The notes under the pieces were generated by a model. The model saw only the letters and a list, made by a program, of their open reading frames with translations, ran no database searches and had not been told where the DNA came from. The position numbers and the translations under genes were made by a program. Shown piece by piece: positions 5,546 through 36,155 of a stretch of DNA of 64,000 nt. Origin of the DNA: Brevundimonas sp. GTDB lineage: Bacteria > Pseudomonadota > Alphaproteobacteria > Caulobacterales > Caulobacteraceae. The number at the start of each line of letters is the position of its first letter. Position 1 is the stretch's first letter. Location: the NCBI RefSeq assembly GCF_965278935.1, contig NZ_OZ257124.1:1831302-1895301 (forward strand). Direction: 5' to 3'.

Positions 5546-6388
5546 ATGCCGACGCGCGGCCGGCTCGGCCTGATCGCGGGCGGCGGGGCCCTGCCGTTGG
5601 CCATCGCGGCCCGGTGCGAGGCCGAGGGCCGGCCGCTGCTCGTCGTGCGCCTGACCAGTTTCGCCGACCCCCATCTGATCCGCTATCCGGGGCTGGAGGC
5701 CGGCATCGCCGAGATCGGCAAGGTGCTTTCGGCGTTGAAGGCGGCGGGCTGCACGGCGGTCTGTTTCGCGGGGACGGTGAACCGCCCCGATTTCAAGGCG
5801 CTGAAGCCCGATCTGAAGGGGGCGATGGTGCTGCCCGGAATCATTGCGGCGGCGACGAAGGGCGATGACGCCCTGCTGCGCAAGATCCTGTCGGTGTTCG
5901 AGGCCGAGGGCTACGCCATCGAGGGCGCCGATGACATTCTCGGCGGCGAGACCCTGCCGGTCGGCGCTCTGGGACGGATGACGCCCGACGAGGATCAGTT
6001 GTTCGATCTCAGGAAGGCCCTGCATGTCGCGGAAAAAGCGGGCGAACTCGACATCGGTCAGGGTGCGGTCGTCTGTGACGGGCTCGTGCTGGCGGTGGAG
6101 GCGCAGGAGGGCACCGACGCCATGCTCGGGCGCGTCGCGGGTCTGCCCGCAGACCTGCGCGGCGCGGCCGGACACCGGAAGGGCGCTCTGGGCAAGGCGC
6201 CCAAGCCGATCCAGGATCTGCGTGTGGACATGCCGGTCATCGGGGCCCGGACTATCGAGATGGCCGCCGCCGCCGGTCTGGCGGGCGTCGGCGGGGTCGC
6301 GGGCAAGCTGATCCTGATCGACCGGGACGCGATCATCGCGGCGGCGGATCGGCTGGGCCTGTTCGTCTGGGGCGAGGACCGGCCGTGA
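5546..6388 (+). CDS. lpxI: UDP-2,3-diacylglucosamine pyrophosphatase LpxI
   Basis: 'LGLIAGGGALP', 'DIGQGAVV', 'AVEAQEGTDAML', 'KAPKPIQDLRVDMPVIG'; located between lpxA and lpxB. Confidence 0.93.
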   Translation: MPTRGRLGLIAGGGALPLAIAARCEAEGRPLLVVRLTSFADPHLIRYPGLEAGIAEIGKVLSALKAAGCTAVCFAGTVNRPDFKALKPDLKGAMVLPGIIAAATKGDDALLRKILSVFEAEGYAIEGADDILGGETLPVGALGRMTPDEDQLFDLRKALHVAEKAGELDIGQGAVVCDGLVLAVEAQEGTDAMLGRVAGLPADLRGAAGHRKGALGKAPKPIQDLRVDMPVIGARTIEMAAAAGLAGVGGVAGKLILIDRDAIIAAADRLGLFVWGEDRP

Positions 6389-7569
6389 AGATCATGCTGG
6401 TCGCCGCCGAGGCCTCGGGCGATGCGCTGGGCGCGGGTCTGGCGCAGGCGCTGCGGGCGCTGCGGCCGGATGCCGCCTTCGTCGGTGTCGGCGGACCGAA
6501 GATGGCGGCCGAGGGCGTCGATAGCCCCTTCGACATCGCCGAACTGTCGATCCTTGGCTGGCTTGAGGGTCTGCGCGCCTATGGCCGGGTCAAGGCGCGG
6601 GTCGCCGACACCGTGGCCCTGGCGGTGCGCGAGCGGCCCGATGCGGTCGTCCTGATCGACAGTTGGGGCTTCACCATCCGGGTGGCCAAGGCCCTGCGCG
6701 AGGTGCTGCCGGGCGTGCCCCTGATCAAATACGTCGGGCCGCAGGTCTGGGCGTCGCGGCCGGGACGAGCAAGGACGCTCGCGGGCGCCGTCGATCACCT
6801 GCTGGCCCTCTACGCCTTCGACGCACCGTGGTTCGAGCGCGAGGGGCTGGCGACGACCGTGGTCGGGTCGCAGGCTCTGCATGTCGACATGGGCGCGGCC
6901 AATCCGGCCGCCTTCCGCGCCGCGCGAGGCATCGCGCCCGACGCGCGCCTGCTGCTCGTCCTGCCCGGAAGCCGGCCGAGCGAGATTCGGCTCATGACGC
7001 CCGTCTATGAGGCGGCGATCAAGTCGCTCAAGGCCGCCGATCCAGGGCTTGAGGTCGCCGTGGTCGTCGCGGGCACCGTGGCCGACGACGTCACGGCCCG
7101 GATCGCCGCCTGGCCGTTCCGCACCCACGTGGTGACCGAGGCGGACAAGTACGCGGCGATGAAGGCCGCGACCGTGGCCCTGGCCACCAGCGGCACGGTC
7201 TCGACCGAGCTGGCGCTCGCGGGCGCGCCCATGGTCATCGGTTACCGGTTCGCGCCGCTCAGCTATGCGATCATGAAGCCCTTCTTCACGGGCAGGTACG
7301 CGACCCTGTTCAACCACGCGGCGGACGAGGAAATCGCGCGCGAACTGATCCAGACCGACGCGACGCCCGAGAAGGTCGCGGCCGAGGTCGGACGATTGCT
7401 GCGCAATCCGGACGCCCGCGCGGCCCAGACGCGGCGCCAGACGGAGGCGCTGGACTATATGGGTCGAGGCGGCGACGATCCGTCAGCCCTCGCCGCCGAG
7501 GCCGTGTTGAAGGTCATCGCGGGGGCCTCTGGATCAAACGGCGCATCCGCCCTAGATTCCGTCCGCTGA
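6385..7569 (+). CDS. lpxB: Lipid-A-disaccharide synthase
   Basis: 'AAEASGDALG', 'YVGPQVWASR', 'LPGSRPSE', 'ATSGTVSTELA'. Confidence 0.96.
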   Translation: MKIMLVAAEASGDALGAGLAQALRALRPDAAFVGVGGPKMAAEGVDSPFDIAELSILGWLEGLRAYGRVKARVADTVALAVRERPDAVVLIDSWGFTIRVAKALREVLPGVPLIKYVGPQVWASRPGRARTLAGAVDHLLALYAFDAPWFEREGLATTVVGSQALHVDMGAANPAAFRAARGIAPDARLLLVLPGSRPSEIRLMTPVYEAAIKSLKAADPGLEVAVVVAGTVADDVTARIAAWPFRTHVVTEADKYAAMKAATVALATSGTVSTELALAGAPMVIGYRFAPLSYAIMKPFFTGRYATLFNHAADEEIARELIQTDATPEKVAAEVGRLLRNPDARAAQTRRQTEALDYMGRGGDDPSALAAEAVLKVIAGASGSNGASALDSVR

Positions 7570-7590: not shown

Positions 7591-7932
7591 ATGACTTCTC
7601 CCCGACCGCCAAAGAAGAGCGAGACCCTCGAAATCCGGCTGCCGCACGCCTCGAAGCTCGCCTTCATGGAACGCTGCCGGGCGGCCGGCCTGACCGCCAG
7701 TGAAGTCGTGCGCGGCATGATCGAGAATGAAGCTCCGACCGCCTACAGGGCGCGACGGACGATGAAGGGCTGGCAGGCCCTGGCGGCGGCGGTCGCAGGA
7801 ATCGTCATCGGTGCGGTCGCGGCCCCGTCGATCGCCCAGGCCTTGCCGGGATCGCGCGCGGCCTTCGACCGGATGGACGCCAACCACGACGGCGTCGTCT
7901 CCTTCGTCGAGTTCCAGGCCCTGGTGCGCTGA
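7591..7932 (+). CDS. Small protein: N-terminal ribbon-helix-helix-like segment, hydrophobic helix, C-terminal EF-hand
   Basis: 'KKSETLEIRLPHASKLAFMERCRAAGLTASEVVRGMIE' fits a beta-alpha-alpha pattern; 'ALAAAVAGIVIGAVAAPSIAQA' is hydrophobic; 'DANHDGVVSFVE' is a canonical 12-residue EF loop. Confidence 0.8.
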   Translation: MTSPRPPKKSETLEIRLPHASKLAFMERCRAAGLTASEVVRGMIENEAPTAYRARRTMKGWQALAAAVAGIVIGAVAAPSIAQALPGSRAAFDRMDANHDGVVSFVEFQALVR

Positions 7933-7945
7933 GCCTCGCGCCCTA

Positions 7946-8062
7946 CTAGTCCAAGGCGCAGTAGAGGACGGCCCCCCAGATCGCGACAGCGACGAGAGCA
8001 TATCCGACGCGGTCCCAGAGGGTGCGGCGGGGCGGGGGCGGAGTTTTGTCGAACAGGGGCAT
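7946..8062 (-). CDS. Putative 38-aa single-pass membrane peptide (not in ORF track)
   Basis: Reverse strand reads MPLFDKTPPPPRRTLWDRVGYALVAVAIWGAVLYCALD*; basic/proline N-terminus then a hydrophobic helix; fills the gap divergent from the LysR gene. Confidence 0.55.
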   Translation of the reverse strand: MPLFDKTPPPPRRTLWDRVGYALVAVAIWGAVLYCALD

Positions 8063-8109
8063 CGATCAGGTTCAACCCGAATTGCCTCCGTCCCGAAATC
8101 GATTAAACG

Positions 8110-8136
8110 GACCTCAGTCTGTGAGCTGAGGTCACA
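8110..8136. promoter_or_regulatory. Two overlapping dyads at the LysR start, including a T-N11-A LysR-type site
   Basis: TGTGA-GCTGAGG-TCACA (8120-8136) contains T-N11-A and ends on the A of the LysR ATG; GACCTCAG (8110-8117) and CTGAGGTC (8126-8133) form a second inverted repeat. Confidence 0.6.
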
Positions 8137-9053
8137 TGAAGCCCGCCGCCCCGCCGCCACTCAATGCGCTCCGCGCCTTCGAGGCCTTCGCGCGGCATGG
8201 CGGGATGACCGCTGCGGCGGCCGAGCTCTGCGTCACCCACGGCGCGGTCAGCCGTCAGGTCGCGGCGCTGCAGGACCAGCTTGGGGTCGCCCTCGTCGTC
8301 GGGCCGCGTCACCGCCTGACCTTGACCCCCGCCGGAGCCGAACTCGCCGGGCGGCTTACCGGGGCCTTCGCGACGATCAGCGACGCCGTCGATGCCGCGC
8401 GCCGCGACGAACGGCGCGAGATCGAGATTTCCTGCCTCGGCACCTTCGCGTTGAAATGGCTGATCCCGCGCCTGCCGGGATTCATGGCCCAGCACCCCGA
8501 GATCCGGGTGCGGGTTTCGGAGTCCTACGCCGCCGTCGATTTCGCCAGGACGCGGATCGACGGCGCGATCCGTATCTTCAACCCGGGCCAGGAGGCGAAG
8601 CGGCAGGAGGTCACGCCCTTTCTGCCCCAGTATCAGGGCCCCGTAGGCGCACCCGACGTGACGCCGGCGGGCATGTCTATCGAGACCCTCGGCCGATTGC
8701 CGCGCCTGCACGCCTCGACCTTCCGCGAGAGCTGGGACGTCTGGAGCGAACTGGTCGGGCTGCGCCTGCCGCCGGCGCCTCAGGAGCGAGAGTTCCAGCA
8801 CAACAACTCGATGATCGAGGCCGCCGCCGCCGGGCTGGGCGCAGCCATCGCGCCCTGGGCCTTCGTGGCGCCGGACATCGCTACGGGGCGGCTTGTCGCG
8901 CCTTTCGGCTTCGCCGAGCGGCCGTCGAAGTTCGTTTTCCTGCGACCCGAAGGCCATCCGGACGCCTCCGTCGACGCCTTCCGCGACTGGCTGGTCGCGG
9001 AAGGAGCCGTCAGTCCGGCACCGCCTATTCCTTCGACAGGTCCTGCCGATTGA
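8136..9053 (+). CDS. LysR-family transcriptional regulator (GcvA/AmpR-like)
   Basis: 'PPLNALRAFEAFARHG...AAAAELCVTHGAVSRQVAALQDQLG' HTH; 'KWLIPRLPGF'; 'AAAGLGAAIAP'. Confidence 0.95.
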   Translation: MKPAAPPPLNALRAFEAFARHGGMTAAAAELCVTHGAVSRQVAALQDQLGVALVVGPRHRLTLTPAGAELAGRLTGAFATISDAVDAARRDERREIEISCLGTFALKWLIPRLPGFMAQHPEIRVRVSESYAAVDFARTRIDGAIRIFNPGQEAKRQEVTPFLPQYQGPVGAPDVTPAGMSIETLGRLPRLHASTFRESWDVWSELVGLRLPPAPQEREFQHNNSMIEAAAAGLGAAIAPWAFVAPDIATGRLVAPFGFAERPSKFVFLRPEGHPDASVDAFRDWLVAEGAVSPAPPIPSTGPAD

Positions 9054-9888
9054 ACCAGGCGATGGCGCCCGCCAGTGGGACCAGCGTCCACAGGGCCAGG
9101 CTGACGATCGCCTTGAGCATCAGGCCTTCGGGCGCGGACGGGGCGCCGACGCCGGCCGTGATCATGGCCTTCAGGCCTTCGAAGGCGAGGCCCGGCAGCA
9201 GCAGCATGGACTGCCAACTCGTCGGATCCCACTGCAGGATCGCGAGGCCGGGGCCGCCCAGCAGGCTCTGGGCGAAGCCGAGCACGACCGGCACGAACAG
9301 GGCGGCCAGCAACGACCGGGTGAAGACCCCCGCAAGCAGGGCGATCATCGCGTACTGGACGATGCGGATATAGCCGAGAAGCAACAGCAGGCCGAAGTCG
9401 CCCGCATCTCCGCCGTCGATGCTGAAGGTGATGTCGTGGCCGTTGATCAGGGCCCCGCTGATCGAGAAGATCATGCCCCCGATCAGGAAGAGGACCATGG
9501 CCGCCAAGGTCAGGACCTTGAAGGCGCCGACCTTGCCGAGGATCAGGTTGAGGCGGCTGTTACGCGCGCTGATCAGCCGCCAGGTCTCCCAGCGGTAGTC
9601 GCCCGCGTAGAGGGTCGCCGCCCCGATCAGCATGAAGACCAGAATGGCGCCGTTGGCCGCGATGCCCGCGCACTGCACCAGGTCTTGACCCAGGTTGGTC
9701 ACGGCGATCAACGAGGCGGCGCCGGGCGCCATGTCGGCGGTCATTTCCGCTATCTTCGACCGGGTGATCACGTTGAAGGCGATGCCGCCGATGGCGAAGC
9801 CGATGGGCACGAACAGCGCCGACCAGAACACCGCCATGCGGTTGCGGGACAGGCGGTACAGTTCGGAGAGAACGGAATCAGCCAGCAT
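9025..9888 (-). CDS. ABC-2 type exporter permease
   Basis: About six TM segments; 'AGDYRWETWRLISAR..RLNLILGKV' EAA-like loop; overlaps the ATPase stop. Confidence 0.88.
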   Translation of the reverse strand: MLADSVLSELYRLSRNRMAVFWSALFVPIGFAIGGIAFNVITRSKIAEMTADMAPGAASLIAVTNLGQDLVQCAGIAANGAILVFMLIGAATLYAGDYRWETWRLISARNSRLNLILGKVGAFKVLTLAAMVLFLIGGMIFSISGALINGHDITFSIDGGDAGDFGLLLLLGYIRIVQYAMIALLAGVFTRSLLAALFVPVVLGFAQSLLGGPGLAILQWDPTSWQSMLLLPGLAFEGLKAMITAGVGAPSAPEGLMLKAIVSLALWTLVPLAGAIAWFNRQDLSKE

Positions 9889-10804
9889 GGATCGTCTCCG
9901 GAGTTTGCACGGAGCCGGTCTCGACCATGAAGACGCTCTCCAGATCGGCGCCGACCCATCGGGCCTCGTCGATGTCGACGCCGCCCTGAACCAGGGCGCG
10001 CAGCAGGGCAGGGACGTCGGCGCGGGGCAGGGTGGCCAGAACCGCGTCGCCTTCCAGCACGCCCGAGGCGCCCGGCAGGCTGGATACGATCTCCAGCGTC
10101 TTCGAGATCGGCGTCACCGACAGCCGCAGTCGCTCGCCCGAGGCGGTCAGTTCCGAGACGGCGCCTTCGCGGACCAGCTTGCCCCGGTTCAGGATGGCGA
10201 CGCGGTCGCAGACGCGCTGGACCTCCAGCAACTGGTGGCTGGCCAGGACCACGGTGATTCCGTCCTTCTCGGACAGCGACCGGATCAGGGCGCGCATCTC
10301 CTGAATGCCGGGCGGATCCATGCCGCTGGTCGGTTCATCGAGAATGACCAGCTCCGGCTCGGTGATCAGGGCGGCGGCGACGCCGAGCCGCTGCAGCATG
10401 CCGACGGAGAAGCCACGCACCTTGCGGTCGGCGGCCTCGGTCAGACCGACACGCTCCAGCCAGCCGGCGACCCGCGCCGCATCAGGCTTCAATCCGTGGG
10501 CGGCGGACAGCCAGACCAGAACCTGGCGCGCGCTCATGAAGGGCGGGAAGCGCGGCGTCTCGATCATCGAGCCCATGCGGCGCGAGGCCGCGACGTCGCC
10601 GATGCGCCCGCCCATGACCGAGGCCTCGCCGTCGGTCGGCCGGATCAGGCCCAGCAGGATGCGGAACAGGGTCGACTTGCCGGCCCCGTTCGGTCCCAGC
10701 ACGCCGTAGACCCCGCCGCGCGGAATGGTCAGGCTCAACCCGTCCAGTGCGCGAACCGCGCCATAGGTCTTGGTCAGGTTCCGGGTTTCGATCACTGCGG
10801 TCAT
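9878..10804 (-). CDS. ABC transporter ATP-binding protein (BcrA-like exporter)
   Basis: Walker A 'GPNGAGKST', signature 'FSVGMLQRLG', Walker B 'ILDEPTSGMDP'; start likely ATG 10804. Confidence 0.95.
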   Translation of the reverse strand: MTAVIETRNLTKTYGAVRALDGLSLTIPRGGVYGVLGPNGAGKSTLFRILLGLIRPTDGEASVMGGRIGDVAASRRMGSMIETPRFPPFMSARQVLVWLSAAHGLKPDAARVAGWLERVGLTEAADRKVRGFSVGMLQRLGVAAALITEPELVILDEPTSGMDPPGIQEMRALIRSLSEKDGITVVLASHQLLEVQRVCDRVAILNRGKLVREGAVSELTASGERLRLSVTPISKTLEIVSSLPGASGVLEGDAVLATLPRADVPALLRALVQGGVDIDEARWVGADLESVFMVETGSVQTPETIHAG

Positions 10805-11028
10805 TCCCGACCATCGCCCGGCCAATCCCGCACGGCAAGCGTGTGGAGGATTAAGCTTCCGACAGGTTCGACGGGCCGGATTCTGTTCCTTGTCGTCGCG
10901 ATATCGACGCCTGCCGATGCAAAACAGGCCCGCAGACGGTTACGAGAAACGCCATCCTCGTATAGGACCCCCTCCCAACGCGTCGATGTGACGGGTTTCA
11001 GGCGGTGCAGACTTCAGGAGTGCATGAG

Positions 11029-12234
11029 ATGAGCAGGGTTCTCGTAATCGGGGCGGGGGGCGTCGGCTCCGTCGCCGTCCACAAGATGGCGATGAACGCC
11101 GACATCTTTTCGCACATCACACTGGCCTCGCGGACGAAGTCCAAGTGCGACGCCATCGCCGTCTCGGTCAAGGAGCGCACCGGCGTAACCATCGACACGG
11201 CAGCCATCGACGCCGACGACGTCGCCGCGACCACGGCCCTGATCAATGCCGTGAAGCCCGAGCTCGTGGTCAATCTGGCCCTGCCGTACCAGGACCTGAA
11301 CATCATGGACGCCTGCCTGGCGGCCGGGGTCCACTATATGGACACCGCCAACTACGAGCCGCGCGACGAGGCGAAGTTCGAATACAAGTGGCAGTGGGCC
11401 TATCAGGATCGCTTCAAGGAAGCCGGTCTGATGGCTCTTCTCGGGTCGGGCTTCGATCCCGGCGTCACGTCCGTGTTCACGACGTACACGAAGAAGCACC
11501 TGCTGGATTCGATCGAGACGCTCGACATCCTCGACTGCAACGGCGGCGACACCGGCCTGCCGTTCGCGACCAACTTCAATCCCGAGATCAACCTGCGCGA
11601 AGTGACCGCGCCGTCGCGACACCTCGAGAACGGCGAGTGGATCGAGGGCCCGGCCCTGACCAACAAACAGGTGTTCGACTTCGAGGCCGTGGGGCCGAAG
11701 AACATGTACCTCATGTACCATGAGGAACTGGAGTCGCTGGCCAAGTTCTATCCGGAAATCAAACGCATCCGCTTCTGGATGACCTTCGGAGACTCCTATC
11801 TGAAGCACCTCGACGTGCTCGGGAACATCGGCATCCTCTCGATCGAGCCGATGACCTTCCAGGGCCGCGAGATCATCCCGATCGAATTCCTGAAGGCCCT
11901 GTTGCCCGAGCCGTCGTCGCTGGGCCCGCTGACCAGGGGCAAGACCAATATCGGCACCATCGCTACCGGCATGAAGGACGGCGTCCAGAAGACGGTCTAC
12001 GTCAAGAACATCTGCGACCACGAAGAGGCCTATGCCGAGACCGGCAACCAGGCCGTCAGCTACACCACGGGCGTGCCGGCCATGATCGGCGCCGCCATGA
12101 TCCTGACGAGCCAGTGGAAAGGCGCGGGCGTGTTCAACATGGAGCAAATGGACCCCGATCCCTTCATGGACATGCTGAACAAGCACGGCCTGCCCTGGAA
12201 GGTGCAGGAACTGGACGCCCCGCTGGCGTTCTGA
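11029..12234 (+). CDS. Carboxy(nor)spermidine dehydrogenase (saccharopine dehydrogenase family)
   Basis: 'VIGAGGVG' Rossmann motif, 'YMDTANYEP', 'GSGFDPGVT', 'TNFNPEINLRE', 'YHEELESL'; AGGAG RBS at 11016-11020; adjacent to nspC. Confidence 0.92.
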   Translation: MSRVLVIGAGGVGSVAVHKMAMNADIFSHITLASRTKSKCDAIAVSVKERTGVTIDTAAIDADDVAATTALINAVKPELVVNLALPYQDLNIMDACLAAGVHYMDTANYEPRDEAKFEYKWQWAYQDRFKEAGLMALLGSGFDPGVTSVFTTYTKKHLLDSIETLDILDCNGGDTGLPFATNFNPEINLREVTAPSRHLENGEWIEGPALTNKQVFDFEAVGPKNMYLMYHEELESLAKFYPEIKRIRFWMTFGDSYLKHLDVLGNIGILSIEPMTFQGREIIPIEFLKALLPEPSSLGPLTRGKTNIGTIATGMKDGVQKTVYVKNICDHEEAYAETGNQAVSYTTGVPAMIGAAMILTSQWKGAGVFNMEQMDPDPFMDMLNKHGLPWKVQELDAPLAF

Positions 12235-12237
12235 TCG

Positions 12238-13431
12238 ATGCACACCCCTTCCGGCGCCATGGAGACGAAGGCGGGCGGGCCCGGCGCGTTCGCCCGCTTC
12301 GACCTCGGCCGCGTGCCGTCGCCCTGTTTCGTGGTCGACGAGGCGGCGGTGCGTCGCAACCTCGGCATCCTCAGGGACGTCGGGGCGGCGGGCGGCGCGC
12401 GCGTCCTGCTGGCGCTCAAGGCCTTCTCGATGTGGTCGCTGGCCGATCTCGTCGAGGAATACCTGGACGGCGTCTGCGCCTCGGGCCTGTGGGAGGCGCG
12501 CCTGGCGCGGGAGTTCTACAAGGGCCACCTGACCACCTACTCGCCCGCTTACAAGGCGGGAGAACTGCCCGAGATCCTGCGCCTGTCGGACACGGTGATC
12601 TTCAACACCCCGGCCCAGATCGCGCGTTTCGCCGACCTGATCGCCGAAGCCCGCGCGGCCGGCGAGACCTTCGACATCGGCCTGCGTCTCAACCCTGAAC
12701 ATTCCGAGGCGGAGGTCGCCAAATACGATCCCTGCCAACTCGGATCCCGGCTGGGTTTCCCGGTGTCGCAGCTGAAGCCCGAGCACCTGCGGGGCGTCGA
12801 CGGCCTGCACCTTCACGCCCTCTGCGAACAGGGGTTCGAGCCGCTGCAGCGCATCTGGACCTCGCTGGAGCCCCGGATCGCGGACGCGCTCGTCGGGTTA
12901 AACTGGCTGAACCTCGGCGGCGGCCACCACATCACCCGCGCCGACTACGACCGCGAGGGCCTGAGCGCCTTCCTCAGGACCATCGCCGAACGCCACGCCA
13001 TCGAGGTCTATATCGAACCCGGCGAGGCCATCGCGCTCGACGCCGGCATCCTGGTCGGAGAGGTCCTCGACACCTTCGACAACGGCCTGCCGGTCGCCAT
13101 CACCGACATCTCTGCGACCTGCCACATGCCCGACGTTATCGAGGCGCCCTACCGCCCGGCGATGCTGGGCGAGGCTGAGGAAGGCCTCGCCTGGCGCCTG
13201 GGCGGCCCGTCATGCCTGGCCGGCGACATCATCGGCGACTATCGCTTCCCCACGCCGCCGGGCGTCGGAACCCGCATCGCCTTCCTCGACCAGGCCCACT
13301 ATTCGATGGTCAAGACCACGACCTTCAACGGCGTGCCCCTGCCGGCCATCGCCCTGTGGAACTCCGACACCGACGCCCTGCGGCTTGTCCGCGAGTTCGA
13401 CTGGACCGAATTCCGCGACCGGCTGTCCTGA
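12238..13431 (+). CDS. nspC: Carboxy(nor)spermidine decarboxylase
   Basis: 'PSPCFVVDE', 'LLALKAFS' PLP lysine, 'NLGGGHHIT', 'IEPGEA', 'SATCHMPD..E.PYRP', 'HYSMVKTTTFNGVPLP'. Confidence 0.93.
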   Translation: MHTPSGAMETKAGGPGAFARFDLGRVPSPCFVVDEAAVRRNLGILRDVGAAGGARVLLALKAFSMWSLADLVEEYLDGVCASGLWEARLAREFYKGHLTTYSPAYKAGELPEILRLSDTVIFNTPAQIARFADLIAEARAAGETFDIGLRLNPEHSEAEVAKYDPCQLGSRLGFPVSQLKPEHLRGVDGLHLHALCEQGFEPLQRIWTSLEPRIADALVGLNWLNLGGGHHITRADYDREGLSAFLRTIAERHAIEVYIEPGEAIALDAGILVGEVLDTFDNGLPVAITDISATCHMPDVIEAPYRPAMLGEAEEGLAWRLGGPSCLAGDIIGDYRFPTPPGVGTRIAFLDQAHYSMVKTTTFNGVPLPAIALWNSDTDALRLVREFDWTEFRDRLS

Positions 13432-13481
13432 GCGGCCCGCCCCGAGACATCGCGCCTCCGGTCGGCTAAATCCGCCGTCCC

Positions 13482-14729
13482 ATGTCGATCCTGCATCCCA
13501 AGGCGCGCAAGGCCGCCATCGCCTTCATCTTCGTGACGGCGGTGCTCGACATCCTGTCGATGGGCGTGATCATGCCGGTCCTGCCGTCGCTGATCGAGGA
13601 GTTCGCGGGCTCCAGCGCTTCGGCCGGCATCTGGAACGGCGCCTTCGTGGCCATGTGGGCCGCGATGCAGTTCCTGGCCTCGCCGGTGATCGGCTCTCTG
13701 TCGGATCGTTACGGACGCCGTCCGGTGATCCTGATTTCCTGCGCCGGTCTGGCGCTGGACTGGATGCTGATGGCCCTGGCGCCGAACCTGTGGTGGCTGG
13801 CGGTCGGGCGGATCCTCGGCGGCCTGACATCGTCCAGCTTTACGGCCATCTACGCCTACATGGCCGACATCACCGCGCCGGAGAACCGGGCCCGCGCCTA
13901 CGGTCTGATCGGCGCGGCCTTCTCGGGCGGCTTCGTCCTGGGACCCGTCGTCGGCGGCTTCCTTGGCGAGATCGGCCCGCGCGCGCCCTTCTGGTTCGCC
14001 GCCGTCCTGTCCGGGGTTGCCTTCCTGTATGGCCTCTTCATCCTGCCCGAGAGCCTGCCGGTCGAGAAGCGAATGGCCTTCAGCTGGCGGCGCGCCAATC
14101 CCATCGGCGCCATGAGCCTGCTGCTGCGGCATGTGGAGCTGACCGGCCTCGCGGCGGTGAACTTCCTGCTCTACTTCTCCCACCACGTGTTTTCGGCGAT
14201 CTTCGTCCTCTACGCCATGCACCGCTACGGCTGGGGGCCGCGCGAGGTCGGGCTGCTGCTGGCCGGCGTCGGGGTCATCGACATGGTCATGCAGGGCACG
14301 GTCGTCGGGCCGGTCACCAAACGGCTGGGCGACCGCAACACCATGCTGGTCGGCTTCGTCGGCGGGACCATCGGCATGGCCATGATGGGCTGGGCCCCGA
14401 ACGGCGTCTGGTTCGCGCTGGCCATGCTGCCCAACGCGCTGTGGGGTCTGGCCATGCCGACCATGCAGGCCCTGATGACGCGTCAGGTCGGCGACGACGA
14501 ACAGGGCCAGCTCCAGGGCGCGAACAACTCTGTCGCCTCCATCGCGGGCATCGCCTCGCCCCTGTTCTTCGGCTGGGTCTACGCCATGTCGGCCGGGTCC
14601 AATGCCTGGCTGCCGCATCCGGGCACGGCCTTCTTCATGGCCGCCGTCGTGCTGGCCGCGGCGGGTCTGCTGGGCTGGCGCGTGGGCGTGAAGGCCGAAC
14701 GCGCCGAGGCTGCAACGCGCGCGCCTTGA
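13482..14729 (+). CDS. TetA/TCR-family MFS efflux transporter
   Basis: Motif A 'GSLSDRYGRRPVIL', 'GRILGG', 'GFVLGPVVGG', 'LPESL', 'EQGQLQG'; 12 TM pattern. Confidence 0.9.
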   Translation: MSILHPKARKAAIAFIFVTAVLDILSMGVIMPVLPSLIEEFAGSSASAGIWNGAFVAMWAAMQFLASPVIGSLSDRYGRRPVILISCAGLALDWMLMALAPNLWWLAVGRILGGLTSSSFTAIYAYMADITAPENRARAYGLIGAAFSGGFVLGPVVGGFLGEIGPRAPFWFAAVLSGVAFLYGLFILPESLPVEKRMAFSWRRANPIGAMSLLLRHVELTGLAAVNFLLYFSHHVFSAIFVLYAMHRYGWGPREVGLLLAGVGVIDMVMQGTVVGPVTKRLGDRNTMLVGFVGGTIGMAMMGWAPNGVWFALAMLPNALWGLAMPTMQALMTRQVGDDEQGQLQGANNSVASIAGIASPLFFGWVYAMSAGSNAWLPHPGTAFFMAAVVLAAAGLLGWRVGVKAERAEAATRAP

Positions 14730-14766
14730 TCCAGCCCGAAAGCAGGACAGATATACAGGCCTCGAC

Positions 14767-16191
14767 ATGGCTCATTTCCGGACTGCAATGAAGACCTCGA
14801 TGATCGCCCTCGCGGCCTGCCTGACGCTGGCGGCTTGCGGCAACGCCAACTCCACCAGGGCCCAGGACGGCGTCTTCGCCGAACTGACCCAGCGCCAGAC
14901 CCCCACCGACTCCACCTCGATGAAGCAGAGCTTCGCCCCGGTGGTGCGCGAGGCGGCGCCCGCCGTGGTCAACATCTCGGCCCGCTCGATCCAGCGGGTC
15001 CAGGCCGACCCCTTCTTCCAGATGTTCGGCGGCGGCATGCCCCAGCAGCGGGTGGCGGAATCCGCCGGTTCCGGTGTCATCGTCCGCTCCGACGGCATCG
15101 TGGTCACCAACAACCACGTCATCGAGGGCGCCCAGCAGATCCGCGTCGTCCTCAACGACCGGCGCGAGTATCCGGCCGAGGTCATCCTCGCCGACGAACG
15201 CTCCGACATCGCCGTCCTCAAGCTTCAGGGCGTCACGGAGCAACTGCCCGTCCTGGCCATCGACGACCGCGAGCAACAGGAGGTCGGCGACCTCGTCCTG
15301 GCCATCGGCAATCCGTTCGGCGTCGGCCAGACCGTGACCAACGGCATCATCTCGGCCCTGAACCGGACGGAGACCGGAATCTCCGACAGCGGCTCCTTTA
15401 TCCAGACCGACGCGGCCATCAATCCGGGCAACTCCGGCGGGCCGCTGGTCGACATGGACGGTGACGTCATCGGCATCAACACGGCCATCTTCTCGCGCTC
15501 GGGCTCGTCCGCGGGCGTCGGTTTCGCGGTGCCCGCCTCGATGGTGCGGCGCGTGGTCGATTCGGCCCTGGGCGGCGAGACGGCCGTCGTTCGTCCCTGG
15601 CTGGGCGTGAAGGGCGACACCGTCTCGTCCGATATAGCCCGCTCGCTGGGCATGGCCCGGCCTCAGGGCCTGATCGTCACCGCCATCTATTCGGGTGGGC
15701 CGGGCGCACGCGCGGGCCTGCGCGAAGGCGATGTCATCACCGCGCTCGACGGCGCCGAGGTCCATGATCAGGCAGGCCTGAACTTCCGCGTCGGCACGAA
15801 GAGCCCCAACGAGGCCGTAGCCGTCACCGTCCTCCGCGACGGCCGCAGCCAGACCCTCAATGCCCGTGTCCAGCCTCTGCCCGGCGATGCCAAGGGCGAT
15901 GGTGAGGTCATCCAGCAGGGTCCCTTCGCGGGCGCCGAGATCGCGGTCCTGAATCCGGCGCTGGCCGACCGGCTGGGCGGTGATCCCTTCGCCAGCGGGG
16001 CCATCGTCACCAATGTCGGGGGCCGAACCGCCGCGCGCGCCAACGGCTTCCAGCCCGGTGACGTGGTGACCCAGATCGATGGCCGGCCTGTGCGCGATAT
16101 CGCCGCCGTCCGCCGGGGCTCGCGCGGATCCGAGGTGACCATCCAGCGTCAGGGCCGGGTCATGACCGGCCGGGTCGGCTACGCTGGCTAA
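14767..16191 (+). CDS. HtrA/DegQ (Do) serine endoprotease with PDZ domains, lipoprotein-type signal
   Basis: 'SAGSGVIV', 'VTNNHV', 'IQTDAAINPGNSGGPL'; 'LTLAAC' lipobox; start 14767 or 14788. Confidence 0.95.
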   Translation: MAHFRTAMKTSMIALAACLTLAACGNANSTRAQDGVFAELTQRQTPTDSTSMKQSFAPVVREAAPAVVNISARSIQRVQADPFFQMFGGGMPQQRVAESAGSGVIVRSDGIVVTNNHVIEGAQQIRVVLNDRREYPAEVILADERSDIAVLKLQGVTEQLPVLAIDDREQQEVGDLVLAIGNPFGVGQTVTNGIISALNRTETGISDSGSFIQTDAAINPGNSGGPLVDMDGDVIGINTAIFSRSGSSAGVGFAVPASMVRRVVDSALGGETAVVRPWLGVKGDTVSSDIARSLGMARPQGLIVTAIYSGGPGARAGLREGDVITALDGAEVHDQAGLNFRVGTKSPNEAVAVTVLRDGRSQTLNARVQPLPGDAKGDGEVIQQGPFAGAEIAVLNPALADRLGGDPFASGAIVTNVGGRTAARANGFQPGDVVTQIDGRPVRDIAAVRRGSRGSEVTIQRQGRVMTGRVGYAG

Positions 16192-16604
16192 ATCCCCGTC
16201 TTCGGTCCCATGAAGGACCAGACGTGGCCATACGGGTCGGTCATCTTGCCGTGGCGGCCATAGAAGTCGTCCTCGGCCGGACGGATCGTGATCGCGCCCC
16301 TGGCCGAGGCCCGCGCCATCCAGGCGTCCACGTCGTCGACAGCCAGGGCGATCGAGACGGTCGTGCTGCCCAAGGTCCGCGGGGCCTGCGCGCCGATGCG
16401 GTCCTGCACCTCGGGGAACTCGTCGGCGAGGTAGATGACCCCGCCGTTGACCGACAGGCTGGCGTGTCCCACCCGACCGTCGTCCTGATCGTAGCGGGCG
16501 GTGACCTCGGCCCCCAGGGCGGCGCAGTACCACTCCACCGCCGCCGGACCGTCGTGCACCATCAGATAGGGCGTGACTGGCGGATCGGGCGGGACATGGG
16601 TCAT
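16188..16604 (-). CDS. VOC/glyoxalase family protein (PhnB-like)
   Basis: 'VTPYLMVHDGPAAVEWYCAALGA', 'HASLSVNG', 'DDFYG.RHGKMTDPYGHVWSF'. Confidence 0.9.
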   Translation of the reverse strand: MTHVPPDPPVTPYLMVHDGPAAVEWYCAALGAEVTARYDQDDGRVGHASLSVNGGVIYLADEFPEVQDRIGAQAPRTLGSTTVSIALAVDDVDAWMARASARGAITIRPAEDDFYGRHGKMTDPYGHVWSFMGPKTGI

Positions 16605-16605
16605 C

Positions 16606-17019
16606 TCAACCTGCCTTCACGGGGCCGGACACGGACCAGCAATGGCCGAACGGGTCCTTTACCTGGCCGTAGCGTGCGCCCCAGAACTGGTCCGAAAGCG
16701 GAAACACCGGCACAGCCCCGGCCGCCAGCGCCCGATCCCACCAGGCGTCGGCGTCATCGACCTCCAGATGCAGTGTTACGCCCACGGGGGTGATGTCGAT
16801 CTTGCCATCGTGTTCCGGAAACTCGTCGTGCAGCAACAGACCGCCGCCGTTGATGATCAGGTGGGCGTGCATCAGCCGCTCACCGTCCTCGGCCAGCATC
16901 TTCGACTGGACGACCGCTCCGAACGCCCGGCCATAGAATTCCAGCGCCGCTTCGCCGCCGCGCGACGGGATGGTGATATGCGGGGTCACGCCCGGCATGG
17001 GGGTCGGCGCATCGGTCAT
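16606..17019 (-). CDS. VOC/glyoxalase family protein (PhnB-like), tandem paralog
   Basis: 'VTPHITI..AALEFYGRAFGA', 'DQFWGARYGQVKDPFGHCWSV'. Confidence 0.9.
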   Translation of the reverse strand: MTDAPTPMPGVTPHITIPSRGGEAALEFYGRAFGAVVQSKMLAEDGERLMHAHLIINGGGLLLHDEFPEHDGKIDITPVGVTLHLEVDDADAWWDRALAAGAVPVFPLSDQFWGARYGQVKDPFGHCWSVSGPVKAG

Positions 17020-17086
17020 GGCGTTCTCCTTCGTAGCCAGACTAACGCGTGAAATCGGCGTTGCGAACGCCTACATCCGAGAGTTC

Positions 17087-18397
17087 ATGACCGACCTGTT
17101 CGAAGCCTCCGGCATCCATCCCCCCGACGCGCCGCTGGCCGACCGCCTGCGTCCCGCGACGCTCGACGAGGTGGTGGGGCAGGATCATCTGCTGGGCGAA
17201 GGCGGGCCGATCCGGCGCATGATCGAGGCCGGCCGTCTGGGCTCGATGATCCTGTGGGGGCCGCCCGGCACCGGCAAGACCACCATCGCCCGCCTGCTCG
17301 CCAGGGCCGCGGGGTACCAGTACCAGCAGATCTCGGCCGTCTTCTCCGGCGTCGCCGACCTGAAGAAGGCGTTCGAACAGGCCCGCATGCGCCGCGCCGC
17401 CGGCCAGTCCACCCTGCTGTTCGTCGACGAAATCCACCGCTTCAACCGCGCCCAGCAGGACGGCTTCCTGCCGTTCGTGGAGGAGGGGGTCGTCACCCTC
17501 GTCGGGGCCACGACCGAGAACCCGTCGTTCGAGCTCAACGGCGCCCTTCTGTCGCGCAGCCAGGTCTTCGTGCTCAAGCGGCTGGACGATGTGGCGCTGG
17601 ATCTGCTGCTCTCTCGCGCCGAGGCGCAGGAGGGGCAGGACCTGCCGCTGACGCCCGAGGCGCGTCACGCCCTGACGGCCCTGGCCGACGGCGACGGCCG
17701 CTACCTGCTGACCATGGCCGAGACCCTGTTCGCCCTGCCGCCCGAGCCCGTGCTGGACGTCCAGGCCCTTGCGGGCACCCTGCAACGCCGCGCGCCCGCC
17801 TACGACAAGTCGAGGGAGGAGCACTACAACCTCATATCCGCGCTGCATAAATCGGTGCGCGGTTCTGACCCCGACGCGGCCCTCTACTGGCTGGCGCGGA
17901 TGCTGAACGGCGGCGAGGATCCTCTGTATCTGGCCCGCCGCATCGTTCGCATGGCGGTCGAGGACATCGGCGAGGCGGACCCCCTGTCCATCATGGTCGC
18001 CAATGCGGCCAAGGACACCTACGACTTCCTGGGCAGTCCCGAGGGCGAATTGGCCCTGGCCCAGGCGGTGGTCCATCTGGCGACGGCGCCCAAGTCCGTC
18101 GCCGTCTACGAGGCCTTCAAGGCCGCGAAACGTGCGGCCTCCGAAACCGGCTCCCTGATGCCGCCGGCCCACATCCGCAACGCCCCGACGAAGCTCATGA
18201 AGTCGCTCGGCTACGGCAAGGGCTACCAGTACGACCCGGACACGGAGGAGGGCTTCTCCGGCGCGAACTTCTTCCCCGACGAGATGGAGCGAAGGACCTT
18301 CTACAAGCCGAAGGGCGAGGGCCACGAAGAGAAGATCAAGGCGCGGCTGGAGCGCTGGGCCCGAAAGCGGGCGGATATCCGGTCAAAGGCTGAGTGA
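17087..18397 (+). CDS. rarA: Replication-associated recombination protein A
   Basis: 'PLADRLRP', 'WGPPGTGKTT', 'FVDEIHRFNRAQQD', 'GATTENPSFE', 'ISALHKSVRGSDPDAA'; start ATG 17087. Confidence 0.96.
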   Translation: MTDLFEASGIHPPDAPLADRLRPATLDEVVGQDHLLGEGGPIRRMIEAGRLGSMILWGPPGTGKTTIARLLARAAGYQYQQISAVFSGVADLKKAFEQARMRRAAGQSTLLFVDEIHRFNRAQQDGFLPFVEEGVVTLVGATTENPSFELNGALLSRSQVFVLKRLDDVALDLLLSRAEAQEGQDLPLTPEARHALTALADGDGRYLLTMAETLFALPPEPVLDVQALAGTLQRRAPAYDKSREEHYNLISALHKSVRGSDPDAALYWLARMLNGGEDPLYLARRIVRMAVEDIGEADPLSIMVANAAKDTYDFLGSPEGELALAQAVVHLATAPKSVAVYEAFKAAKRAASETGSLMPPAHIRNAPTKLMKSLGYGKGYQYDPDTEEGFSGANFFPDEMERRTFYKPKGEGHEEKIKARLERWARKRADIRSKAE

Positions 18398-18466
18398 TCG
18401 CTGTTCATTGTCGAACGCCCGCGACCGGCATAGCTTCGCCGTTCAAGGGATCCTTGGGAGGGGACG

Positions 18467-18907
18467 ATGGCTGACGGAATGAAGACGCCCTGGCATCTGT
18501 GGCTGGTGGGCGTGCTGAGCCTGCTGTGGAATGCGTTCGGCGGATACGACTTCATCATGACCAATACCCAGGGCGAGACCTATATGCGCGCCTCGGGCAT
18601 GACCCAGCCGATGATCGACTATTTCAACGCCATGCCGACGTGGATGTATGTGCCTTGGACGCTCGGGGTCTGGGGCGCGATCACCGGCTCGGTTCTGCTG
18701 CTGTTGCGGATGAAATGGGCGGTCCACGCCTTCGCCCTGTCCGTGATCGGCGCCGTCACCAGCCTGATCTTCGGCTTGATGAACCCCATGCCCGGCCTTC
18801 CGCCTGAACTGGCCGTCATGGCGTATATGCCGTGGATCATCGCCGTGATCGCTGCCCTTCTGCTTTGGTACGCCTGGGCCATGGGCAAGCGCGGCGTTCT
18901 CCGCTAA
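18467..18907 (+). CDS. Conserved four-TM membrane protein, function unknown
   Basis: GGGAGGG RBS; 'KTPWHLWLVGVLSLLWNAFG..D' followed by four hydrophobic segments. Confidence 0.75.
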   Translation: MADGMKTPWHLWLVGVLSLLWNAFGGYDFIMTNTQGETYMRASGMTQPMIDYFNAMPTWMYVPWTLGVWGAITGSVLLLLRMKWAVHAFALSVIGAVTSLIFGLMNPMPGLPPELAVMAYMPWIIAVIAALLLWYAWAMGKRGVLR

Positions 18908-18916
18908 CCGGCGGGG

Positions 18917-19648
18917 GTGTCCGACCGCACCCCCGTCACCCTGTCGCCCGAAGAAATCGCCGCCGTCCGCTCGTGGGTCATCCACGAGGACGCCTCGACG
19001 ATCGCCTTCGCAAAGCCCGCAGGCCTTTCCAGCCAGGGCGGCCGCATCCAGGTGCACACCCTGGACGATCTGCTCTGGGCCTTCGCGCGCTCGAACGGCA
19101 AGCGGCCGGATCTCGTGCACCGGCTCGATCGCGACACTTCCGGTGTGATCCTCGCCGCCAAGACCAAACCCGCCGCCGGCTTCCTCGGCAAGGCGATCCA
19201 GGCCCACAAACTGACCAAGACCTATCTGGCCTTGGTCTCGGCCGCGCCCGAACCCGCGAGCGGCGACATCAACCTCCCCCTGGTCCGTCAGGAAATCGGC
19301 CGTGAAAGCTATATGCGCGTCGCCGCCTTCGACGCGAAGGGCGCGCAGGGGTCGCGCAGCAAGTATCGCACCCTGTCGTCGAGCGAGGACGGCGCCCTGG
19401 TCGAGTTGCAACCGTTCACCGGCCGGATGCATCAGTTGCGCGTCCACATGGCCCACGTCGGCCGCCCCCTGGTCGGAGATGTCCGCTATGGCGGCGCCCT
19501 GACGGCGGCGGGTCGAGGCGCGCCCCGACTGATGCTGCACGCTGCATCGCTGAGGTTCCCGCACCCCGACGGCGGCGAACGCACGGTCACCGCAGAACCA
19601 CCTGAAGACTTCCGGACCTTGGCCGAAGCGATGGGGCTGAAAATCTGA
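18917..19648 (+). CDS. RluA-family pseudouridine synthase (no S4 domain)
   Basis: 'KPAGLSSQGG', 'LVHRLDRDTSG' catalytic Asp, 'TGRMHQLRVHMA..G.PLVGD..YG', 'LMLHA'. Confidence 0.93.
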   Translation: MSDRTPVTLSPEEIAAVRSWVIHEDASTIAFAKPAGLSSQGGRIQVHTLDDLLWAFARSNGKRPDLVHRLDRDTSGVILAAKTKPAAGFLGKAIQAHKLTKTYLALVSAAPEPASGDINLPLVRQEIGRESYMRVAAFDAKGAQGSRSKYRTLSSSEDGALVELQPFTGRMHQLRVHMAHVGRPLVGDVRYGGALTAAGRGAPRLMLHAASLRFPHPDGGERTVTAEPPEDFRTLAEAMGLKI

Positions 19649-19650
19649 AC

Positions 19651-19673
19651 CCTTCTCCCGCAAGGGGAGAAGG
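19651..19673. repeat. Short REP/terminator-like hairpin
   Basis: CCTTCTCCC-GCAAG-GGGAGAAGG, immediately after the RluA-family stop. Confidence 0.55.
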
Positions 19674-19924
19674 AAGCCAAGCGGTACCCATCAACGGACG
19701 CGTCGATTTGCTCAATCAAATCAAGGCTCGGCCCTGACGAGAGCTCTTTTACCCATCACACCCTGAAACGCCCCCATACTGATCCCTTTCGTGCGGAGAG
19801 GATCACCATGGGCGTTTTCGGGTTCGGCCAACCGGACTCTGTGGACTATCTGGACTCGAATTTCCGGAGTCTCGTTCGTCGGGAACGCCTCTACCGCCCG
19901 CAGCGCTTAGCTGGAGAAAGGACT

Positions 19925-20431
19925 ATGCCCATGATCCGCACCCTCGTCATCGCCACGGCCGCCCTCAGCCTCGCCGCCTGCGCCAGCCTAGCCCCCTACG
20001 GACCCCAGCGCGGGCCGAACGGGCAGGGATACTCGGAACAGCGGATCGAGAGCGACCGCTACCGGGTCAGCTACAACGGCGTCGGCGCGCCCGGTCCGGT
20101 CGCCGACATGGCCCTGCTGCGCGCCGCCGACCTGACCATCGAACAGGGCTATGACTGGTTCGAGGTGACCCAGCGCTATGTCGACGGCCGCCCCGACAGC
20201 GCCGGCGGCTTCCGGCCCAGCGTCTCGGTCGGCTATGGCGGCGGTTCGGGCCGTTACGGCGGTTACCGCTATTCGTCGTCCGGCGTGGGCGTCGGCGTGG
20301 GTCTGAATTTCGAAGGCCCGTCCGCGACCTCGACCGTGCTGGAAATCAGACTCGGTCGCGGCGCTCGCCCGGACCGGGGCGAGGCCTATGAAGCGCGGGA
20401 GGTGCGCTACTCGCTCAGCGGCCGCGAGTGA
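19925..20431 (+). CDS. Lipoprotein (CC0125/CC1285-like family)
   Basis: GGAG RBS; lipobox 'LSLAAC'; 'GYSEQRIESDRYRVSY.G...DMALLRAADLTIEQGYDWF'. Confidence 0.8.
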   Translation: MPMIRTLVIATAALSLAACASLAPYGPQRGPNGQGYSEQRIESDRYRVSYNGVGAPGPVADMALLRAADLTIEQGYDWFEVTQRYVDGRPDSAGGFRPSVSVGYGGGSGRYGGYRYSSSGVGVGVGLNFEGPSATSTVLEIRLGRGARPDRGEAYEAREVRYSLSGRE

Positions 20432-21578: not shown

Positions 21579-21751
21579 GACGGACGGTGTGACCCTTGCG
21601 AACTACGGCGCGACTTTGATGCCAACGACAGCGCGGGGCGAGAGGCTTCCCTCCCAACGCGAAGCTTGGGTATCGCCGTTAACCCTGTAACGCGGCAAGT
21701 GAAGTTTCGGTCAGGTGACGCGAGGCTGCGTCGCGCTATAAGGCCCCGATT

Positions 21752-24628: not shown

Positions 24629-24673
24629 GGAAGTGACTAGACTTGGGCCTTCGCCTGAGTGATTCGACCGCCC

Positions 24674-27222: not shown

Positions 27223-27223
27223 G

Positions 27224-27281
27224 CTTCGTCCGTTTCGTCATGACGAGCGCAACGTGACGAAACGCGACGAAACGGACGAAG
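27224..27281. repeat. Perfect 16-bp inverted repeat with nested palindrome and GACGAA(AC) direct repeats
   Basis: CTTCGTCCGTTTCGTC (27224-27239) and GACGAAACGGACGAAG (27266-27281); TCGTCATGACGA palindrome at 27235-27246; extra GACGAAAC at 27256-27263. Confidence 0.85.
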
Positions 27282-27752: not shown

Positions 27753-27804
27753 GGCGGTTCTCCGGTTGGACCTTGGACCTCAATGACATTTTCTTCGCCG
27801 CCGT

Positions 27805-27832: not shown

Positions 27833-27881
27833 ACCCTGTGAAAGCGCGGGCGACGGGCCGGCGCACAGGGGGTGAAGGACG

Positions 27882-28283: not shown

Positions 28284-28304
28284 TGTCGGTCCGTGGGGGA
28301 CAGG

Positions 28305-36145: not shown

Positions 36146-36155
36146 GGAGACGACG

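Follow-up and report, generated by a model that had tools for sequence, protein, structure and literature searches.

A predicted membrane-tethered ribbon-helix-helix/EF-hand protein family of alphaproteobacteria and its probable partner, a second signal peptidase I gene

The window analysed here is a stretch of 64,000 nucleotides (nt) from Brevundimonas sp. (NCBI RefSeq assembly GCF_965278935.1, contig NZ_OZ257124.1, positions 1,831,302 to 1,895,301 of the forward strand). At positions 7591..7932 of its plus strand, stop codon included, lies a gene for a protein of 113 amino acids (aa) in which a ribbon-helix-helix (RHH) domain, a transmembrane (TM) helix and an EF-hand follow one another; we refer to it as the RHH-EF gene. 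The protein is the minimal form of a family that, judged by its members' sequences, is wide and uncharacterised in alphaproteobacteria and joins an RHH domain and a TM helix to one, two or four EF-hands. Central to the family is a link to a signal peptidase gene, which a rearrangement has hidden in the window: lepB2, encoding a second signal peptidase I, is the conserved partner and probably the target of the RHH regulator. The model that we favour, with somewhat more confidence than doubt, is a homodimeric TM one-component regulator with the RHH ribbon inside and a pair of EF-hands outside, which would bind two palindromes at the lepB2 promoter and whose binding would be modulated by EF-hand occupancy.

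Results

The open reading frame (ORF) at 7591..7932(+) is intact. An earlier first-pass annotation, made from the letters of the window alone, had proposed an RHH-TM-EF-hand architecture within these 113 residues, and every element that it listed could be located. A large protein collection contains 323 full-length homologues of the protein, and the family comprises 212 cluster representatives at E≤1e-10. The ratio of nonsynonymous to synonymous substitution rates (dN/dS), calculated per segment against 11 orthologues, is about 0.1-0.3 in all three segments of the gene. Homologues, representatives and dN/dS together argue that the gene is real, beyond what chance would produce, and that purifying selection acts on it.

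The common layout is found in about 140 of the 150 best representatives. EF loops number one in about 40 of these 150, two in about 30 and four in about 57. The N-terminus of the family carries K-K-S-E-T-L-E-V-R-L-P, and the hydrophobic segment lies at about residues 60-100. Carriers belong to the Caulobacterales (Brevundimonas, Caulobacter and Phenylobacterium, with the four-EF forms in Hyphomonadaceae) and to the Sphingomonadales. Between two and five copies, at times in tandem, are present in some genomes of the order. Such tandem RHH-TM-EF pairs, with about 150-250 nt between the two genes, occur in other families of the order, where up to five copies per genome were counted; examples are G423:C1:1526454-1527583, G448:C1:35563-36824, G513:C2:136035-137284 and G528:C25:324056-325245.

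Functional names given to these proteins in the sources are limited to 'EF-hand domain-containing protein', with one JGI name adding 'antitoxin component of RelBE/YafQ-DinJ'. A search for the RHH front end on other exported domains, using residues 1-108 of a four-EF member as query, returned almost only EF-hand proteins, and the few matches without an EF-hand look frameshifted or truncated. A class-wide census with a 52-residue profile, which scored just a part of the initial candidates, found the family in 3 of 401 genomes and missed known carriers, and its count was not used as a measure of prevalence. Full-text literature searches, in which journal coverage was incomplete, found no description of the family, of its operator or of the link to lepB2. 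The remark of the first-pass annotation that no characterised protein had this architecture stands after these searches.

Residues 1-50 (7591..7740, plus strand) form a predicted cytoplasmic RHH domain of the DinJ/RelB type, as PDB and Pfam profiles indicate. A profile built from 60 N-terminal domains matched, in the PDB, DinJ (9lew, E 9.7e-6), VapB26 (1.3e-3), ORF56 (0.015) and RelB (0.025); the match to DinJ bears out the RHH-like N-terminus that had been read from the letters of the window. When the N-terminal domains of 60 diverse members were compared with Pfam, 41 matched RelB and 31 matched RHH_1 (best E 1.3e-7). The window protein alone matches Pfam RelB at E 0.026. Its N-terminal domain has no Pfam match at gathering level, and domain-based censuses would therefore miss the family.

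Invariant positions given here are taken from an alignment of 100 sequences. Within the RHH domain they are K8, K9, E11, E14, R16, K22, F25, C29, S37 and R41. The segment TLEIRL (residues 12-17, 7624..7641, plus strand), which follows the invariant lysine pair, aligns with the strands of DinJ, RelB and ORF56 and is the predicted DNA-reading beta-strand. The turn G-L-T-A-S at the N-terminus of helix B (residues 33-37, 7687..7701, plus strand) aligns with GLSTS of DinJ. G33 and T35 of this turn are nearly invariant and S37 is invariant, and we read it as the RHH phosphate-contact motif G-x-S/T.

The AlphaFold2 (AF2) model, run as a monomer with the 100-sequence alignment, places helices at residues 19-31 and 36-47, and the predicted local distance difference test score (pLDDT) is 86-97 over residues 11-40. 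Nearly all structures returned by Foldseek are RHH or EF-hand structures (DinJ, CopG, AmrZ, Arc, VapB, TacA and EhCaBP1), every one of them at E>0.7; CopG, for instance, superposes with a root mean square deviation of 2.4-2.6 Å across 37-38 residues. In this comparison of the monomer model with known folds, the two helices are present and RHH proteins head the Foldseek matches, but the E-values stay above that level throughout. The fold search is thus consistent with an RHH domain without being decisive. It is the sequence profiles that carry the assignment of residues 1-50 to the RHH superfamily (MetJ/Arc/CopG), with DinJ/RelB as nearest relatives. Identity as a type II antitoxin (DinJ/RelB) was considered and rejected, because the protein lacks a toxin-binding C-terminal arm and because no toxin or toxin-like gene lies beside the RHH-EF gene in any neighbourhood context examined.

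The RHH domain is followed by the basic linker RARRTMK (residues 52-58, 7744..7764, plus strand), the positive-inside determinant according to the flank charges, and by a single TM or signal-anchor helix (residues 59-78, 7765..7824, plus strand). The latter is supported by hydropathy, with the top 19-residue Kyte-Doolittle stretch at residues 63-81 (mean 2.16), by a helix at residues 59-76 in the AF2 model and by the family, nearly all 150 representatives of which have one hydrophobic segment at the matching position. Because the net charge is +4 on the N side of the hydrophobic helix and 0 on its C side, the predicted topology is N-in, with the RHH domain inside and the EF-hand outside; the same topology had been proposed in the first-pass annotation from the positive-inside rule. 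A twin-arginine translocation (Tat) signal was discarded, as the RR of RARRTMK is replaced in orthologues, e.g., by PRPAMR or PARLRG.

Directly past the helix lies P-S-I-A-Q-A (residues 79-84, 7825..7842, plus strand), a motif that the family conserves and that complies with the -3/-1 rule for signal peptidase I sites. P79 and A82 do not vary at all and S80 hardly does, and the pattern P-[ST]-hydrophobic-A recurs directly past the helix in two-EF and four-EF members. The A-x-A site to which the first-pass annotation had drawn attention is contained in this family-wide motif, and a signal peptidase may cleave there.

The C-terminal residues 88-113 (7852..7929, plus strand) form a single, predicted periplasmic EF-hand, identified by Pfam, by a PDB profile and by AF2. 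Its loop DANHDGVVSFVE spans residues 96-107 (7876-7911) with ligand positions D1, N3, D5, G6, V8, S9 and E12. D96 and E107 are invariant, D100 and G101 nearly invariant. The window protein alone matches Pfam EF-hand_5 and EF-hand_1 (E 2.5e-5), and a profile of 18 orthologues matches solved EF-hand proteins in the PDB at E 4.8e-8. In the AF2 model, helices at residues 88-95 and 105-112 flank the loop, and the EF-hand reaches a pLDDT of 83-85. With ligands at positions 1, 3, 5 and 12, glycine at position 6 and the PDB profile match, the canonical EF loop that had been noticed in the first reading is confirmed.

Only one neighbour of the RHH-EF gene is constant: in 75 of 80 related loci, a peptidase S26 gene lies next to it. 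Among the genes around these loci there is no further conserved regulator. In Caulobacterales the peptidase gene is convergent and begins a few nt past the RHH-EF stop. In the closest relatives the stop codons of the convergent pair even overlap, by 2-4 nt, in the palindrome GCTAGC, which reads TAG on both strands; the overlap lies around position 5330 in L001-L005, and in a two-EF relative it measures 4 nt (L123 4492-4495). In Sphingomonadales the peptidase gene lies on the same strand, 50-100 nt downstream, in an operon-like arrangement. In Sphingomonas oligophenolica a 94-aa helix-turn-helix (HigA-like) ORF (L020 5391-5675) stands between the RHH-EF gene and lepB2.

In the genome analysed here lepB2 lies outside the window, at C1:1905498-1906283(-), and encodes 261 aa with the Ser/Lys-dyad motifs SMEP, KRVIGLPGD and GDNRDNSLDSR intact. 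The housekeeping lepB of the same genome sits in pdxJ-lepB-rnc-era at C1:2.335 Mb; lepB2 is a paralogue and not the housekeeping signal peptidase I. A tree was built from 23 LepB-type sequences of ten genomes, and in it the Caulobacterales copies linked to the RHH-EF gene form a clade (support 99/97) apart from the rnc-linked ones. The tree groups the sequences by order first, so that the paralogues of the two orders would stem either from independent duplications or from gene conversion and homogenisation.

A second LepB-type gene was present in 10 of 10 genomes with an RHH gene versus 1 of 16 without one, in a sample of 26 genomes of the same family of which 16 belong to the same genus (Fisher p = 2e-6, uncorrected for phylogeny). 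In the ten carriers the second copy is always adjacent, with the exception of the genome analysed here. One genome, G494, has two LepB-type genes, and an RHH-EF gene was not detected in it.

Word enrichment upstream of the linked peptidase gene yielded TCCGGACA in 73 of 76 loci. The full site is a perfect 10-bp palindrome, TGTCCGGACA, which is found with at most one mismatch before lepB2 in 74 of the 76 loci. In 52 of the loci two copies stand 21-22 bp apart, in intergenic DNA that has otherwise diverged. The genome analysed here contains TGTCCGGACA exactly twice in 3.41 Mb, at C1:1906328-1906337 and 1906350-1906359. Both copies lie in the 124-bp gap (C1:1906284-1906407) that separates the gltA terminator from the lepB2 ATG, at distances of 45 and 67 nt from the latter; no other tandem pair occurs in this genome even at one mismatch. 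Nine related genomes hold 2-7 copies each, compared with 0-4 for a control word, and the peptidase-linked copies are always among them. A strict tandem-operator pattern, run over 31 genomes, was found in 4 of the 10 carriers; it misses carriers because many sites are single or one base off. A tandem palindrome-like pair in G479 (L129) lies beside neither a peptidase gene nor an RHH-EF gene. Directly downstream of the proximal palindrome follows TTCGCTGG, which is conserved and might represent the -10 region of the lepB2 promoter.

In 17 of 80 loci the palindrome also precedes the RHH gene itself, at 54-95 nt; in four of these 17, no peptidase gene is adjacent. Before two-EF and four-EF relatives without an adjacent peptidase gene, it stands at -83 (P0128), as two sites 21 bp apart (P0150) or with one mismatch (P0138). 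Because TGTCCGGACA precedes RHH genes even without the peptidase, it follows the RHH family rather than the peptidase alone. K8, K9, E14, R16 and S37, which occupy the DNA-reading positions of the RHH domain, are as invariant as the palindrome, and TGTCCGGACA is probably the DNA site of the RHH protein. A conserved palindrome that travels with the family lends comparative support to the membrane-tethered transcription regulator imagined in the first-pass annotation.

Before the window gene, no palindrome was found at one mismatch or fewer, and 6000-8200 contains one unrelated two-mismatch word. In another locus, L085, two 149-aa genes stand in tandem (6275-7267), and a one-mismatch palindrome TGTCCCGACA occurs at 6175, 100 nt ahead of the first. 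These genes are located downstream of P0145, have no Pfam match and may be another target of the family.

In the genome analysed here the pair is split. Comparison of the orthologous loci L001-L005 with the genome by blastn places a rearrangement junction inside the last codons of the RHH-EF gene (7921..7922): similarity to the orthologous loci ends in the left block at C1:1839220-1839222 and resumes at C1:1905498, the lepB2 stop codon. This breakpoint exactly separates the two stop codons that overlap in the convergent pair and leaves both genes intact, changing the C-terminus of the RHH-EF protein from ...FQAR* to ...FQALVR*. The intervening block measures 66,276 bp and reaches to C1:1905497, covering 7922..64000 of the window and 10.2 kb past it. 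Its guanine-cytosine (GC) content is ordinary, and two related complete genomes have the same DNA upstream of their lpx cluster; for both reasons we interpret it as native Brevundimonas DNA that has been relocated and now separates the RHH-EF gene from lepB2. A foreign genomic island was also considered, and is ruled out by the ordinary GC content and by the matching DNA elsewhere in related chromosomes. At the extreme left end of the block, a 38-aa hydrophobic ORF (MPLFDKTPPPPRRTLWDRVGYALVAVAIWGAVLYCALD, 7946-8062(-)) is divergent from a LysR gene (8136-9053).

Upstream of the RHH-EF gene, at a distance of 21 nt, ends lpxB (6385..7569, plus strand; Pfam LpxB, E 4e-71), the last gene of lpxD-fabZ-lpxA-lpxI-lpxB. 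The first-pass annotation had suggested that the gene may be co-transcribed with the lipid A operon and had proposed to look for a conserved gene neighbourhood. Such a neighbourhood exists in the form of the peptidase S26 gene, but lpxB does not share in it: it is directly upstream in the clade of the window, and lies within 5 kb in only 13 of the 80 related loci. Elsewhere the upstream genes are unrelated, with lptC-lptA-lptB in another Brevundimonas lineage and, in further loci, a DPP-IV peptidase and GDSL lipase, a phytochrome kinase or DUF5996. Lipid A synthesis as conserved functional context was rejected on these counts; the link appears to be incidental and the adjacency of lpxB clade-specific. 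Of the overall interpretation given in the first-pass annotation, the architecture, the predicted N-in/C-out topology and the idea of a membrane-tethered regulator are supported, but the lipid A link as a conserved feature is not.

A scan of 7200-8300 found no promoter-like or terminator-like site. Since the window gene lacks an operator of its own and follows lpxB so closely, it is probably transcribed together with the lpx operon. In the second Brevundimonas lineage, the RHH-EF/lepB2 pair stands after lptC-lptA-lptB (L011 2958-4917 and eleven similar loci). The position of the pair behind lipopolysaccharide genes in two independent settings could be due to chance, or could reflect a link to the Ca2+-stabilised outer membrane.

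Upstream of the RHH-EF gene, TTCACTGGCG is enriched about 40-fold (24 loci). It forms part of a TTGCCGATTA-TTCACTGGCG element located 50-62 nt before the gene start, with TTCATC or TGAGATG about 20 nt later, in about 22 of 80 loci whose upstream genes differ (among them L011, L013, L016, L018, L019, L027, L036, L042, L044 and L047). The form in the window, CTCTGGAT at ~7527, lies inside lpxB and is degenerate. The TTCACTGGCG motif was not found before lepB2. The combined element is probably a lineage-specific promoter element. Long-range RNA pairing via TTCACTGGCG, which is the reverse complement of the A-S-E codons in the window, was dismissed as a coincidence, because most loci encode A-S-E as GCCAGCGAG.

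Discussion

According to the favoured model, RHH residues 1-50 would lie in the cytoplasm, one helix would span the inner membrane and a 30-residue EF-hand tail would extend into the periplasm. RHH domains must dimerise for DNA binding, and a single EF-hand must pair in order to fold. Since the one acts as a dimer and the other in pairs, a homodimer would have a single beta-ribbon for reading DNA on the inner side and a single pair of EF-hands on the outer, and as both domains need pairing, their coupling via one helix is mechanically plausible. The dimer would bind the two TGTCCGGACA copies, 22 bp apart, over the likely lepB2 promoter. Ca2+ at the periplasmic EF-hands may alter the stability or the geometry of the dimer and thereby its binding at the lepB2 operators. 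The outcome would most likely be repression, because the operators overlap the promoter region of lepB2. Moreover, P-S-x-A-x-A just past the helix may make the regulator itself a substrate of signal peptidase, which would create a feedback loop.

Several observations weigh against this model. The four-EF relatives P0145 and P0138 and the two-EF relative P0128 have no adjacent peptidase gene, and P0145 also lacks a palindrome upstream of its own gene. The palindrome could be bound by another protein, and the link between RHH domain and palindrome draws on co-location and co-inheritance, neither of which is independent of shared ancestry. On the side of the protein, none of the Foldseek matches to RHH structures is significant, and the AF2 monomer model forms neither a strand nor a dimer; absence of the strand from a monomer model is expected, since an RHH domain is an obligate dimer. 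The Pfam scores of the EF-hand, 24.0 and 23.9 bits, are just under the gathering cut-offs of 25.9 and 25.4. A lone EF-hand of 30 residues, whose exiting helix is short, may be a weak binder of Ca2+, and its real ligand could be another cation.

Part of the same evidence can be read differently. The protein might be a processed precursor with feedback, in which a cut after P-S-I-A or A-Q-A frees an EF-hand peptide of 29-31 residues and leaves an RHH-signal-peptide stub. Either the stub would then be broken down or an RseP-type protease would free it; through its state the RHH domain would report signal-peptidase capacity to lepB2, and Ca2+ may gate the site. This reading extends the favoured model rather than opposing it, and we regard it as rather unlikely. 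It would account for the invariance of P79 and A82 and for the P-[ST]-hydrophobic-A pattern kept directly past the helix across the family, for a dedicated partner that looks like a catalytically intact signal peptidase I and for a candidate operator of the regulator on the peptidase gene; the reports on RsiV and RsiP describe a precedent in site-1 cleavage by signal peptidase (PMC4183432, PMC8844934). Against it, the hydrophobic stretch of about 19-20 residues exceeds the usual length in cleaved signal peptides and rather resembles a signal anchor, and the motif could be a structural helix cap instead. Taken to its full extent, the idea describes a cleavable signal peptide whose N-terminal extension contains a transcription factor; the protein would be cut at P-S-x-A by LepB2 or by total signal peptidase in a Ca2+-gated manner and would feed back on lepB2, which we hold to be unlikely. 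The EF-hand that would gate the cut lies only a few residues past the cut site. Such a cleavable regulator, if true, would be a substrate-based homeostat of protein-export capacity, tuned by envelope calcium.

A reading that dispenses with regulation altogether takes the RHH-EF gene and lepB2 as co-inherited neighbours, with the palindromes bound by some other regulator. The protein could then, for instance, bind Ca2+ in the envelope and use its RHH domain to hold a protein partner in the cytoplasm, in the way antitoxins hold toxins. The antitoxins DinJ, RelB and VapB are indeed its nearest N-terminal sequence relatives, the evidence for DNA binding is comparative throughout, and the window gene has no palindrome upstream. 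We nevertheless consider this reading distinctly unlikely, as the contexts examined contain neither a toxin-like neighbour nor another conserved regulator gene, the DNA-reading residues of the RHH domain and the palindrome are invariant alike, and the palindrome accompanies the family even where no peptidase gene is adjacent. Hardly credible is translation of a short secreted EF-hand peptide that starts internally at M57, in which case the RHH region ahead of it would be untranslated or fortuitous. M57-K58 does stand ahead of a segment that resembles a signal peptide, but M57 is not conserved in homologues, and residues 1-50 evolve at dN/dS 0.1-0.3, hold most of the invariant positions and match RHH profiles; this pattern of conservation refutes the internal start.

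If the model of a TM regulator of lepB2 is true, the family represents an undescribed class of bacterial TM regulators, with RHH in place of helix-turn-helix and an EF-hand as the outer part, and its 113-aa form would be among the smallest conceivable signal-transduction proteins. It would further be the first case in alphaproteobacteria of a signal peptidase I paralogue with transcriptional control of its own, as part of a previously undescribed circuit that governs protein export, and would offer a concrete candidate sensor of periplasmic Ca2+. To our knowledge, few bacterial sensors of periplasmic Ca2+ have been identified. Because the predicted operator is so specific, with two copies in the genome and both on one promoter, the circuit is directly testable. 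The split pair of the genome analysed here would amount to a natural experiment in which the two genes work without adjacency.

Among known systems, the TM one-component regulators ToxR, TcpP and CadC, surveyed in PMC10269533, come closest in layout. As predicted here for the RHH-EF protein, they unite in one polypeptide a domain that binds DNA in the cytoplasm, one membrane helix and a sensor part on the periplasmic side; presumably, DNA binding takes place at the membrane and dimerisation serves as the switch. Unlike these winged helix-turn-helix proteins, the RHH-EF protein would use an RHH domain and one EF-hand as sensor within 113 aa, and its predicted target is a signal peptidase paralogue.

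The anti-sigma factors RsiV (Bacillus subtilis, Clostridioides difficile) and RsiP (B. thuringiensis) are cut at site 1 by signal peptidase (PMC4183432, PMC6066255, PMC8844934). They resemble the RHH-EF protein, as far as its sequence tells, in being single-pass N-in proteins in which a site for signal peptidase follows immediately outside the membrane and the outer domain binds a ligand and possibly gates cleavage. They differ in that they hold a sigma factor instead of DNA, are cut by housekeeping peptidases and are not described as regulating a peptidase gene.

As to the outer part, EfhP of Pseudomonas aeruginosa is a periplasmic or membrane EF-hand protein. The Caulobacter vibrioides protein CaBP (CCNA_02838) has 133 aa, three EF-hands and a signal peptide at residues 1-21 and is genetically coupled to the regulator sigV (PMC13171946), but is not a member of the RHH-EF family; the same paper lists further C. 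vibrioides EF-hand proteins, one of them 'probable transmembrane', without studying them. What EfhP and CaBP share with the predicted RHH-EF protein is a canonical EF-hand exported to the proteobacterial periplasm, whereas their N-terminus is an ordinary signal peptide or anchor and carries no DNA-binding domain.

Over residues 9-49, the DinJ/RelB antitoxins (9lew, 2k29, 4fxe) share with the RHH-EF protein the E-x-L-x-x-R-[IL] strand, the cysteine of helix A and the G-x-S/T-x-S turn. Unlike them, the RHH-EF protein comes with neither a toxin gene nor a toxin-binding arm and continues into a C-terminal membrane helix and an EF-hand, and its candidate operator is, in contrast to those of toxin-antitoxin operons, a 10-bp palindrome on a peptidase promoter. 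With CopG, Arc and MetJ it shares, by prediction, the fold class and the reading of short palindromes or repeats in the major groove by dimers, several of which occupy one operator. Those regulators are soluble and their adjacent dimers lie about one helical turn apart, whereas the RHH-EF dimers would be tethered to the membrane and occupy sites two turns (21-22 bp) apart.

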